Source of the DNA: Escherichia phage vB_EcoM_MM02
Length of the DNA: 64,000 nt
Sequence record: MK373784.1
Direction: 5' to 3' (one strand)
Each line of letters starts with the position of its first letter. The first letter of the stretch is position 1. The notes below the pieces were generated by a model. That model did not search any database and was not told the DNA's origin. It saw nothing but the letters and a program-made list of their open reading frames with translations. The position numbers and the translations under genes were made by a program. Shown here piece by piece: positions 10,810 through 11,634 of the stretch.

Positions 10810-11116
10810 CTTGCGGCAACCTTGTCGGGGTTCCACCTGCTAAGGCAAGTGTTTGTACGAAACGCCGGGATTCGAACCCGGTTATTAAGCAGTTGACGCT
10901 ACTCAATATTTTTAAAAGGCCATATCTCGACCATATCCGAACGTTCCGTCAAAAACGCTACTCGGCTTACGGCAAAGATATTTCCTCGAATCGATAATTC
11001 GGTGCGCCGTTTCTGCTGTGATGTAAGGGGATATTAACAAATCGTAAAGATTTATTAAGACCAGTCCTTACTCAGGGAACATCAGTCCGACGACTTGCCG
11101 GTAGCGACCCGGCTTC
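10810..11116 (-). ncRNA. non-coding region with tRNA-like T-arm; possible small stable RNA or degenerate tRNA
   Basis: Minus strand contains CCGGGTTCGAATCCCGG (canonical T-arm) but I could not fold a complete cloverleaf by hand; no plausible ORF. Confidence 0.3.
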
Positions 11117-11461
11117 TTATTTTGGCATATCATCAATTTGCTCTCGACGCCGACGCCATAGATTAATCGCTTCATTAACACATTCAGCATTTGGTATATG
11201 ACGACAATAGTATAGTGATTCGCGTTTCTGGAACCGATGTTGTAATGGAATTTCGTTTAAAAGGTCTTTACGGTCAAAGTATTCAAAACTAGTTAACCCT
11301 GAACGGTTTTTAAGAAACTTCCAATGGCCAAATTCATTTTGGAAATAAACGTAATCAGCGTGTTGATATAACGAATTAATCAACCGGTCGGAAATAACTG
11401 TTTCACGTTCGTTAAAATAAAACGTTAAGTCATGAACTACCAGATAAATATTGCCTTTCAT
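11117..11461 (-). CDS. hypothetical protein between tRNA and small-RNA region
   Basis: Start chosen at MKGNIYLVV with SD GAGGAAAA; the longer ORF start would overlap tRNA-Arg. Confidence 0.45.
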   Translation of the reverse strand: MKGNIYLVVHDLTFYFNERETVISDRLINSLYQHADYVYFQNEFGHWKFLKNRSGLTSFEYFDRKDLLNEIPLQHRFQKRESLYYCRHIPNAECVNEAINLWRRRREQIDDMPK

Positions 11462-11479
11462 ATTTTCCTCACTTAAAGT

Positions 11480-11556
11480 TGGTCGAGACAGAAGGATTCT
11501 AACCTTCAACCTACGGATTAGAAGTCCGTTGCTCTATACAATTGAGCTATGCCTCG
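11480..11556 (-). tRNA. tRNA-Arg (anticodon TCT)
   Basis: Hand-folded 77-nt cloverleaf: acceptor CGAGGCA/TGTCTCG, D-stem GCTC/GAGC, anticodon loop CTTCTAA, T-arm GAAGG-TTAGAAT-CCTTC, encoded CCA. Confidence 0.65.
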
Positions 11557-11559
11557 GAT

Positions 11560-11634
11560 TGGTGACCCTGGCTGGTTTCGATCCAGCTACCTATCAGTTA
11601 TGAGCTGACAGCTCTCCCATTGAGCTACAGGGCC
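11560..11634 (-). tRNA. tRNA with CAT anticodon (Met or Ile-lysidine type)
   Basis: Hand-folded 75-nt cloverleaf: acceptor GGCCCTG/CAGGGTC, anticodon loop CTCATAA, T-arm GCTGG-ATCGAAA-CCAGC, encoded CCA. Confidence 0.65.

Follow-up and report, generated by a model that had tools for sequence, protein, structure and literature searches.

Homologues of T4 rnaD and rnaC in the tRNA operon of the RB69-type phage vB_EcoM_MM02

Introduction

In Escherichia phage vB_EcoM_MM02 (MK373784.1), two tRNA genes lie close to a non-coding stretch that contains a canonical T-arm but does not yield a full cloverleaf. This raises the question of whether the stretch is the remnant of a tRNA gene or encodes an RNA of another kind. 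A sequence-only reading had described the locus as a reduced tRNA cluster with a tRNA-like relic, and had named a small stable RNA as the alternative. It had also stated that T4 has eight tRNAs and two small stable RNAs in this region, which agrees with the T4 annotation, where the eight tRNAs, rnaC and rnaD occupy the homologous place. The analysis covers a window of 64,000 nucleotides, and all positions are numbered from its first letter.

The phage is a T-even of the RB69 type (Mosigvirus), and the locus is very probably its tRNA operon, including homologues of T4 rnaD and rnaC. A megablast search with the window returned 808 T-even records, the best of which was the Mosigvirus moha (99.6%). 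Loci of this kind are already known, and the structural detail added here is a modest by-product.

Layout of the operon

All of the tRNA, rnaC, rnaD and ORF features are located on the minus strand (Table 1). Transcription would run leftward and produce a single precursor of approximately 0.95 kb, in the order middle promoter (~11723-11697), tRNA-Ile(CAU), tRNA-Arg(UCU), ORF150c, rnaD, rnaC, trailer and intrinsic terminator (10778). The consensus for T4 middle promoters is a MotA box, (a/t)(a/t)(a/t)TGCTTtA, followed after 11-13 bp by a TAnnnT -10 element. The box, spacer and -10 element at the head of the operon follow this pattern, making the sequence a candidate MotA-dependent promoter. The candidate shares bases with the stop codon of the preceding ORF, the RB69ORF151c homologue, and shows near identity to the sequence in front of the T4 tRNA-Gln (ATGCTTTAAGAATTATTTGTTATTATTAACTCATACC). 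A middle promoter immediately ahead of the T4 tRNA cluster is reported to drive its transcription (PMC2330249). A late promoter (TATAAATA) was not found inside the operon, as the search of 10700-11800 gave only 1-mismatch sites outside the RNA start points.

At the other end of the operon, the trailer folds into the hairpin CACUUGC-CUUA-GCAGGUG and a small GCAA-loop hairpin, followed by the intrinsic terminator. The 114-aa ORF does separate the tRNAs from the non-coding stretch, as had been described. Its stop codon, TAA (11119-11117), falls inside the first 4 nt of rnaD. The protein has no match in Pfam, NCBIfam or PDB, and belongs only to a PHROG of unknown function (phrog_3355).

Table 1. 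Features of the tRNA operon in the window
Feature	Position	Strand	Basis and remarks
Middle promoter candidate, MotA-type	11697..11723	-	MotA box TTTGCTTTA 11723-11715, spacer 12 nt, -10 element TATTAT 11702-11697
CAU-anticodon tRNA, lysidine-type tRNA-Ile (from sequence); reads AUA, CCA encoded	11560..11634	-	ARAGORN; Rfam RF00005 59.4 bits
tRNA-Arg(UCU); reads AGA, CCA encoded	11480..11556	-	ARAGORN; Rfam RF00005 71.1 bits
ORF150c, 114 aa from ATG, RB69ORF150c homologue	11117..11461	-	ORF list; RB69 annotation; phrog_3355 E=5e-50
rnaD homologue (T4 species 2 RNA), ~120 nt	11001..11120	-	Mapped from T4 NC_000866 annotation by alignment; ends transferred from T4
rnaC homologue (T4 species 1 RNA), 139 nt	10856..10994	-	Mapped from T4 annotation; ends transferred from T4
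P2 apical-loop hexamer UUGACG of rnaC, predicted 5' kissing partner	10947..10952	-	Same in 24/28 distinct homologues
P3 loop CGUCAA of rnaC, predicted 3' kissing partner	10893..10898	-	Perfect 6-nt Watson-Crick complement of UUGACG
Canonical T-arm of rnaC, CCGGGTTCGAATCCCGG	10881..10865	-	Sequence
3' trailer of the operon transcript, 78 nt	10778..10855	-	Minus-strand terminator scan and fold
Intrinsic terminator, GCCCC..GAAA-loop..GGGGC and U5	10804-10783 and 10782-10778	-	Terminator scan

The layout closely resembles that of T4 (NC_000866), in which rnaD is likewise followed by rnaC on the tRNA strand. The trailer, the terminator and the middle-promoter sequence ahead of the cluster are also the same. 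In T4 and RB7, however, rnaD directly follows tRNA-Arg, whereas in the window ORF150c is inserted between them. The number of upstream tRNAs also differs, with two in the window, eight in T4 and ten in RB7. RB69 (AY303349 / NC_004928) has the same gene order as the window, comprising a tRNA labelled tRNA-Met(CAU) in its record, tRNA-Arg(UCU) and ORF150c. It is 98% identical to the window over the non-coding stretch, with moha being closer. Annotation of rnaC and rnaD is missing from the RB69 record; ATK47 (Mosigvirus) annotates rnaC on the homologous bases, and RB7 annotates both RNAs.

The two tRNAs

ARAGORN found exactly two tRNAs over the 64-kb window, both on the minus strand, and the tRNA family RF00005 (gathering score 29) matched each of them. 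The pair that had been folded by hand, in tandem, 3 nt apart and with encoded CCA, is thus supported by both programs. The acceptor stem of tRNA-Arg(UCU) is common to the RB7 tRNA-Arg(UCU).

The identity of the CAU-anticodon tRNA rests on its acceptor stem. In E. coli, C4-G69 and C5-G68 are determinants for TilS. Both pairs are present in the stem GGCCCUG/CAGGGUC, which is shared with T4 tRNA-Ile and is formed by G1-C72, G2.U71, C3-G70, C4-G69 and C5-G68, so that the 1-72 pair is intact. With its CAU anticodon, these two pairs and a non-initiator character, the gene is assigned from its sequence as a lysidine-type tRNA-Ile, not a tRNA-Met, and as the orthologue of T4 tRNA-Ile. Its E. coli relatives at E<=0.01 are only cat-anticodon genes named tRNA-Ile by PGAP. 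In RB69, which has two tRNAs (Table 1 of PMC1524935), the CAU tRNA has also been assigned to isoleucine, as 'Ile CAU*' (PMC1524935).

The codons AUA and AGA occur at 12.2 and 7.6 per 1000 in this phage, respectively. Both are rare in E. coli. From what is known of T4, tRNA-Ile and tRNA-Arg would supply decoders for these codons, which are common in the phage and rare in the host.

rnaD and rnaC in the non-coding stretch

The stretch next to the tRNAs is non-coding, as had been proposed for 10810-11116, although the true interval is slightly wider (10736-11116). Neither ARAGORN, with its tmRNA mode included, nor Rfam, run at the gathering scores and at E<=10, found a third tRNA or a tmRNA in this interval. 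The best match of the tRNA clan was tRNA-Sec, at 16.6 bits and E=3.9, where the gathering score is 47. The lack of a full cloverleaf is therefore upheld, and the canonical T-arm is also real and located on the minus strand. A search of Rfam with rnaC and rnaD gave no family matches.

The sequence of the stretch is far from random. The T4 annotation of rnaC (70908-71046) and rnaD (71053-71171) maps base for base onto the window. The rnaC homologue is identical to that of T4 at 137 of 139 positions (98.6%), and its covariance model gave a single match in the window, of 159.2 bits over positions 1-139 (E ~1e-38). Its homology is full-length, and it lies at the end of the tRNA operon, on the tRNA strand and upstream of the intrinsic terminator. 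The rnaD homologue shares 105 of 121 positions with T4, and its model matches 11001-11120 with 145 bits. It is homologous in both sequence and structure and lies directly upstream of rnaC, with a 6-nt spacer as in T4. The T4 homologues are expressed as stable RNAs, as confirmed by Northern blot, and in T4 rnaC accumulates as a discrete species of approximately 140 nt (PMC9697503).

Identity to T4 descends from rnaC (98.6%) through the trailer (73/79; 92.4%), rnaD (86.8%) and tRNA-CAU (67.5%) to tRNA-Arg (41.6%), so that nothing else in the locus is as well conserved as rnaC. The stretch consists of intact rnaD and rnaC of the T4 type together with the operon terminator. It is not a degenerate tRNA, and the alternative guess of a small stable RNA was the correct one. 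The cluster is reduced in that it has two tRNAs instead of T4's eight, as in RB69 (PMC1524935); its small-RNA part is not reduced, because rnaD and rnaC are intact and the rnaC hairpins are maintained by compensatory changes.

Conserved folds of the two RNAs

The fold of rnaC consists of a 7-bp acceptor-like stem (C2-G137 to G8-C131, with two U.U mismatches), a long hairpin termed P2, a 10-bp hairpin termed P3 and the T-arm. Covariation was counted in 28 distinct sequences from at least ten genera, in an alignment that was fitted to the covariance model. Compensatory changes occur in 31 of the 51 consensus pairs, and 95.8% of cells are paired, against 38-49% when the partners are slid. The minimum free energy (MFE) structure of the single sequence is identical to the consensus (z = -4.55). 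The register of the acceptor stem is marked by A4-U135, which is replaced by G-C in 16 of the 28 sequences, and by Pectobacterium phage PM2, in which both U.U mismatches have become U-A.

The fold of rnaD is simpler. A 5' hairpin of 5 bp, with the loop GUCGCUA, is followed by a long imperfect hairpin closed by GUCGUCG/CGGCG(C)AC, the apical part of which is variable. Compensatory changes are found in 21 of its 32 consensus pairs and 95.5% of cells are paired, compared to 33-49% in the slid controls; single-sequence folding gives z = -3.49. Both rnaD and rnaC are under strong purifying selection, on sequence as well as on secondary structure.

Two other pairings were considered and rejected. 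The MFE fold of the whole unprocessed region pairs the 3' strand of rnaC with GAAACG of rnaD, a pairing that is not conserved outside the T-evens. This GAAACG/CGUUUC helix is rejected since the covariation supports the 5' strand of rnaC itself, through the A4-U135 to G-C changes and the U-A pairs of PM2, and the rnaD hexamer is unconserved in other genera. The rnaD loop CGCUAC could also pair with GUAGCG, which occurs twice in rnaC. This is rejected on two grounds: other genera have GACG as the rnaD loop, and a 6-mer match would be expected at random.

The conservation bears directly on the proposal that the stretch is a decayed tRNA gene, left by the shrinkage of a T4-like cluster of eight tRNAs and recognisable only by its T-arm. 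Such a history would agree with a canonical T-arm lacking a cloverleaf and with a cluster of two tRNAs instead of eight to ten. Yet the same 139 nt are found in T4 beside all eight tRNAs, where the product is an abundant stable RNA (PMC9697503), and the identity of 98.6% is far above the conservation of the tRNAs. The hairpins that are kept by compensatory changes in at least ten genera are not those of a tRNA. The homologues of rnaC show no neutral drift, and the proposal, which has a negligible probability, is refuted by this conservation.

Coding of small proteins, for instance by the 74-aa plus-strand ORF at 10773-10997, has an equally slight chance of being correct. Mechanical ORFs of 40-74 aa are found on both strands, a CDS ('hypothetical protein') covers the homologous bases in approximately half of the records listed, and a stop-free frame crosses rnaC in several homologues. 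However, a stop-free frame of 46 codons arises by chance in roughly half of such segments, by the present estimate. The substitutions are paired compensatory changes in stems and not changes of third codon positions. The 74-aa ORF also runs across the terminator and trailer, which are absent from Karam- and Gelderland-type loci, and the T4 strand that gives rise to the stable RNA is the minus strand.

rnaC compared with a tRNA

The resemblance of rnaC to a canonical tRNA (RF00005) lies in its 7-bp acceptor stem stacked on a 5-bp T-stem, in its UUCGAAU loop and in the tRNA slot that it occupies in operons. Unlike a tRNA, it lacks a D-arm, a 7-nt anticodon loop and an encoded CCA, and it is 139 nt long. 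Neither ARAGORN nor RF00005 matches 10856-10994, and the comparative fold has two hairpins that are not those of a tRNA.

It appears that these two hairpins, which replace the D and anticodon arms, probably pair with each other through their loops. A kissing loop is predicted from the complementarity of UUGACG and CGUCAA and from the single instance in which they co-vary. All 28 sequences keep the helix 100% paired, with 6/6 complementarity, and both sides of one pair have changed (A-U to G-C): the four Marfavirus sequences combine the P2 loop UUGGCG with the P3 loop CGCCAA. As this covariation comes from one clade, it represents one evolutionary event. The rnaC hairpins themselves are real, as both underlying stems covary. 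Pairing of the loops would close rnaC into a compact ring on a tRNA-like handle.

Near-invariance of two hairpin loops is also what an antisense regulator would show, with UUGACG and CGUCAA directed against an RNA of the host or phage. A tRNA-like handle for release by RNase P has a precedent in such a regulator, the C4 RNA of phages P1 and P7. This explanation is improbable. Each loop is the complement of the other, and both have changed in Marfavirus, which is better accounted for by intramolecular (or dimer) pairing than by two separate targets. No target was found, and hexamers are too short for such a search.

Distribution of rnaC and rnaD

In the Karam-, Gelderland-, Moon-, Winkler- and Mosuguk-viruses, rnaC is located between tRNA genes on the same strand. 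A gap of 5 nt separates it from the CCA of the preceding tRNA, and one of approximately 5 nt from the tRNA that follows. Karam- and Gelderland-type loci, with tRNAs on both sides of rnaC, lack the trailer and terminator. The rnaC gene is also found without an adjacent rnaD. The reverse is seen in Dhakavirus IME540, in which rnaC has been cleanly lost and rnaD and the trailer are kept. As each RNA occurs alone, neither is required to process the other. In the tRNA cluster of Aeromonas phage 44RR2.8t there was nothing significant for rnaC, and the rnaD model reached 8.4 bits (E=0.35). The rnaC signature had no matches in 185,579 bacterial and archaeal species genomes.

Maturation and possible roles

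From what is known of T4, rnaC would leave the precursor in the manner of a tRNA, since the acceptor-stem/T-arm minihelix is kept. A cut by RNase P would generate the 5' end of rnaC and also delimit rnaD on its 3' side, and trimming by exonucleases would produce the 3' end of rnaC. This tRNA-like maturation of the 3' side is not guaranteed, because no CCA is encoded in rnaC (…CGUUUCG-UA-CAAA) and rnaD of the window ends in …CACCG, compared to …CACCA in T4 and RB7.

In the tRNA-like domain of tmRNA, the MALAT1 mascRNA and the C4 RNA of phages P1/P7, an acceptor/T-arm mimic recruits tRNA-processing enzymes and releases an RNA that is not a tRNA. These serve as a working analogy for the handle of rnaC, with no similarity in sequence or model. 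The body of rnaC consists of two predicted kissing hairpins; it has neither an mRNA-like domain with pseudoknots nor an antisense pair of loops whose targets are known. Deletions of the T4 tRNA region are viable in laboratory hosts.

It is conceivable, if rather unlikely, that rnaC and rnaD are structured cis elements, i.e., processing guides, exonuclease barriers or transcript stabilisers, which persist as stable by-products with no function in trans. They always lie within tRNA operons or end them, on the same strand, and RNase P-type handles elsewhere serve purely as processing signals, as in mascRNA. They also have no known phenotype (PMC3014915). However, near-invariant loop sequences and a co-varying loop-loop contact exceed the needs of a spacer, and rnaC is lost in IME540 with rnaD retained and occurs elsewhere without an adjacent rnaD. 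When a T4-like phage adapted to a semi-permissive host, a convergent SNP in rnaD arose in every line, a hint of a host-specific effect in trans (PMC12685909).

A role in trans has been given a tentative form, in which rnaC would mimic a tRNA without decoding, and would bind or titrate a host or phage factor that recognises tRNAs, and rnaD would be a separate protein-binding hairpin RNA. This joint reading is held to be unlikely. A stronger version, that rnaC founds a new RNA family with nothing in Rfam 15 and confined to T4-like phages of Enterobacterales, in which an acceptor/T-arm handle and two kissing hairpins form a tRNA mimic titrating a tRNA-directed host factor, is very doubtful. Candidates for the titrated factor include defence nucleases that target tRNAs and maturation enzymes. 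Such a role, if true, would explain both the extreme conservation of rnaC and the host-specific adaptive SNP in the neighbouring rnaD.

Implications

The finding mainly corrects annotation. Both rnaC and rnaD are unlabelled in the RB69 reference and in most of the approximately 800 related GenBank records, and other records carry 'hypothetical protein' CDSs over the two RNAs or call rnaC a 95-nt tRNA. Beyond annotation, the comparative model provides experimental handles on the role of the species 1 and species 2 RNAs, a question that has stood for approximately 50 years since they were sequenced. These handles are the covariation-backed folds of both RNAs, the predicted kissing loop with its natural compensatory variant, and the distribution of the family.

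The tRNA locus and its relatives

The two tandem tRNAs that had been folded by hand in the sequence-only reading are upheld by ARAGORN, which finds exactly two genes in the whole window, both on the minus strand. These are also the sole matches to the Rfam tRNA model at the gathering score in the 64 kb. As had been read, CCA is encoded in both and they are separated by 3 nt. The acceptor stem of the CAU-tRNA contains C4-G69 and C5-G68, and the same stem is found in the T4 tRNA-Ile. At E<=0.01, the only E. coli genes related to it have a cat anticodon and the RefSeq name tRNA-Ile. 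This tRNA is common to all tRNA-bearing T4-like phages and carries signatures of a lysidine-modified tRNA-Ile (PMC1524935). Among window ORFs with 150 aa or more, the frequency of AUA is 12.2 and that of AGA 7.6 per 1000 codons. Both are among the rarest codons in E. coli yet common here; thus, the lineage kept precisely the AUA and AGA decoders. The T-loop of the tRNA-Arg(UCU) is the unusual UUAGAAU, with A rather than C at position 56, and its D-loop (AAUUGUAUA) is without the usual GG. A U19-A56 pair may stand in place of the G19-C56 tertiary pair. Despite these odd loops, the tRNA reaches 71 bits with RF00005.

A megablast search with 10700-11700 matched 808 T-even phage records. Escherichia phages moha and vB_EcoM-172859UKE1 come first (99.6%), and a series of Mosigvirus (RB69-like) genomes comes next. 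The layout of the RB69 record is as in the window: tRNA-Met(CAU), tRNA-Arg(UCU), RB69ORF150c, approximately 430 unannotated bp and ORF149c. In the paper that describes the genomes of RB69 and four further T4-like phages (PMC1524935), RB69 has two tRNAs versus eight in T4; a reduced cluster is thus already on record for the lineage. The 114-aa ORF and the T-arm (CCGGGTTCGAATCCCGG) described in the sequence-only reading are both real and, like all features here, are on the minus strand; the non-coding interval is 10736-11116 rather than 10810-11116.

Features of the locus and rnaD-like matches elsewhere (rnaD, spacer, rnaC and trailer are placed by carrying the T4 annotation over through the window-T4 alignment; L-numbers denote phage loci)
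Feature	Position	Strand	T4 identity	Method and score
Candidate promoter	11723-11697			
tRNA-CAU (cat anticodon)	11634..11560	minus	67.5%	ARAGORN; Rfam tRNA model 59.4 bits
tRNA-Arg(tct) (UCU)	11556..11480	minus	41.6%	ARAGORN; Rfam tRNA model 71.1 bits
114-aa ORF	11117-11461	minus		
rnaD	11120..11001	minus	105/121 (86.8%)	
Spacer rnaD-rnaC	6 nt	minus	5/6 (83.3%)	
rnaC	10994..10856	minus	137/139 (98.6%)	
rnaC P2 apical-loop hexamer UUGACG	10952-10947	minus		
rnaC P3 loop CGUCAA	10898-10893	minus		
rnaC T-arm	10881..10865	minus		
Trailer	10855..10778	minus	73/79 (92.4%)	
rnaD-like matches	L023:642-783, L006:407-507, L016:791-890, L039:234-332			covariance model, 24-33 bits

Identity of the non-coding stretch

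A sensitive blastn search with 10770-11120 returned 806 records, 679 of which cover at least 80% of the query, with T4 at 93%. The homologous bases are annotated as rnaD (species II RNA) and rnaC in RB7, as rnaC in Mosigvirus ATK47 and as rnaC/rnaD in T4 (NC_000866). Every testable defining feature of the T4 rnaC and rnaD families was found. The stretch had been read as a tRNA-like relic or, alternatively, a small stable RNA. The second reading is right, as the stretch is homologous to T4 rnaD plus rnaC. The relic label is wrong: rnaC has the highest T4 identity at the locus and is therefore the opposite of a decaying relic. The trailer following rnaC is closed by an intrinsic terminator (GCCCC…GAAA…GGGGC, then U5).

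Neither rnaC nor rnaD matched a family in Rfam 15. Besides the tRNAs, a permissive Rfam scan of 10600-11800 gave only a tRNA-Sec match at 10857-10949 (16.6 bits against a gathering score of 47; E=3.9) and matches at chance level. A tRNA and a tmRNA identity of the element were both tested and rejected. Most related phage records homologous to 10770-11120 are without rnaC/rnaD annotation or have "hypothetical protein" CDSs drawn over the two genes. In other cases the annotation pipeline has labelled rnaC as a tRNA: a 95-nt "tRNA-Met" in SonariX, "tRNA-Met" in PG7 and "tRNA-Lys" in vB_EcoM_G29.

Structure and distribution of rnaC

A covariance model was built from homologues in GenBank phages and viral and metagenome contigs, and has one match in the window (159 bits). 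It detects rnaC in Tequatro-, Mosig-, Gapriver-, Karam-, Gelderland-, Moon-, Winkler-, Kanagawa-, Marfa- and Mosuguk-viruses and in Edwardsiella PEi20-like phages. The signature was not found in 185,579 bacterial and archaeal species genomes or in the tRNA cluster of Aeromonas phage 44RR.

In the consensus fold of 28 distinct sequences, 95.8% of cells are paired and 31/51 pairs show changes on both sides, in an alignment that was fitted to the model and is thus biased toward structure. Sliding the 3′ partners by 1 to 3 columns reduces pairing to 38-49%. The consensus fold is also recovered by an independent MAFFT/RNAalifold run, with 22 compensatory pairs, and the MFE structure predicted from one sequence alone does not differ from it (z=-4.55). 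The acceptor-like stem, of 7 bp, runs from C2-G137 to G8-C131 and has two U.U mismatches at its centre, both of which become U-A in Pectobacterium phage PM2; A4-U135 becomes G-C in 16 of the 28. The 5′ acceptor strand is followed straight away by the long hairpin P2, and then by the 10-bp hairpin P3 and a canonical T-arm, directly next to the 3′ acceptor strand. A D-arm, an anticodon loop and an encoded CCA are all missing (3′ end …CGUUUCG-UA-CAAA).

The P2 and P3 loop hexamers are perfect complements, and both are constant in 24/28 sequences while the stems beneath them vary freely (compensatory changes in 4/5 pairs of helix 4 and 9/10 of helix 6). The four Marfavirus-type sequences carry UUGGCG and CGCCAA, a double change from A-U to G-C. 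PM2 keeps GACG/CGUC, with two U and one A lost together. By our own estimate, the probability that a 6-nt loop finds a chance match among the three windows of an 8-nt loop is ~3 x 4^-6 = 7e-4. Since P2 and P3 are each independently supported, such pairing has to take the form of a loop-loop (pseudoknot-type) contact. It is fairly likely that these loops pair as a kissing loop, within one molecule or between two; we rate it no higher because the covariation is a single evolutionary event. The predicted mutual pairing of the conserved loops makes an antisense role of rnaC less likely than a tRNA-mimic or a cis role.

Structure and distribution of rnaD

From 13 T-even sequences, RNAalifold predicts that rnaD folds into a 5′ hairpin of 5 bp with the loop GUCGCUA, a long stem (GUCGUCG/CGGCG(C)AC) and a variable apical hairpin that has conserved internal loops. 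A model-fitted alignment of 24 distinct rows has 95.5% of cells paired and compensatory change in 21/32 pairs. The covariance model scores 145 bits in the window. Weak matches (19-33 bits) occur in Marfa-, Moon- and Karam-type loci, where rnaD is unannotated. These keep the core AAGUCGUCS … GUUCCCUG … AUCACAGCA … SGGCGCA, with one closing pair changed from G-C to C-G. In PWKp16 and SonariX (L023, L006), the two loci with tRNA annotation there, the match starts 2-3 nt past tRNA-Asn. Judging from these remote matches, which are not individually strong, rnaD is probably also wider than annotation suggests. A marginal match in Aeromonas phage 44RR2.8t (L046, 13344-13441, minus; 8.4 bits, E=0.35), not significant alone, lies immediately upstream of tRNA-Pro, with an apparently compensated closing stem (AUCCUCG/CGGGGUAU).

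The 114-aa ORF ends inside rnaD, with its stop codon in the first four bases of the RNA gene (window 11117-11125, minus). The final codons of the ORF (…CCAAAAUAAG) are similar to the T4 junction "tRNA-Arg …CCA-A-AUGAG rnaD" (2172-2180 of the T4 locus, L004), and from this likeness the ORF was seemingly inserted without loss of the sequence around the rnaD 5′ end. On the plus strand, the terminator scan flags GCCGGTAGCGACCCGGC plus a T-run at 11097-11113, the antisense of the rnaD 5′ hairpin, which could stop any rightward read-through.

Operon organization

The candidate promoter upstream of the first tRNA consists of TTTGCTTTA, 12 nt and TATTAT, and the same sequence precedes the T4 tRNA-Gln. 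A middle promoter just ahead of the tRNA cluster in T4 is reported to give a transcript that reads through all of the cluster and ends behind the species I gene (PMC2330249). The window operon would likewise be read as one leftward transcript of ~0.95 kb. The T4 late-promoter motif TATAAATA has 18 copies in the whole window against 7.65 expected (no shuffle reached 18), mostly on the plus strand at 37.5-51 kb, as expected of a T4-like late-gene block. AATAAATA occurs at 10772-10765 (minus), ahead of the next gene (10735-10271).

In non-T-even genera, rnaC resides inside tRNA arrays, e.g., between tRNA-Trp and tRNA-Gly, starting 5 nt past the upstream tRNA CCA and ending ~5 nt before the next tRNA. 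This placement would be that expected of a tRNA-like processing unit. The rnaC 5′ end may be made by RNase P, as the acceptor/T-arm minihelix and the T4 literature suggest. In Dhakavirus IME540 (L008, 1499-1700), the trailer and terminator come straight after rnaD, with rnaC missing exactly, from ~2 nt past the rnaD …GCGCACC to the trailer start (ACACUUGCC…). In many genera, rnaC occurs with no rnaD beside it; therefore, the two are separable modules.

Possible roles

The roles of RNAC and RNAD are stated to be unknown in reviews and recent work (PMC3014915, PMC9697503). In an evolution study in which a T4-like phage adapted to a semi-permissive E. coli host, a single convergent SNP arose in the rnaD region of every line (PMC12685909), a hint that the role may be host-specific. 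Our preferred reading, weakly supported and in itself rather improbable, is that rnaC mimics a tRNA without decoding and engages a tRNA-recognising factor. The main rival, in which the RNAs act in operon processing only in cis or are by-products of it, is rated slightly higher but is also somewhat unlikely. The locus finding is already known and ordinary. To workers on rnaC and rnaD, the folds backed by covariation, the predicted kissing loop, the wider distribution and the widespread mis-annotation may be of use.
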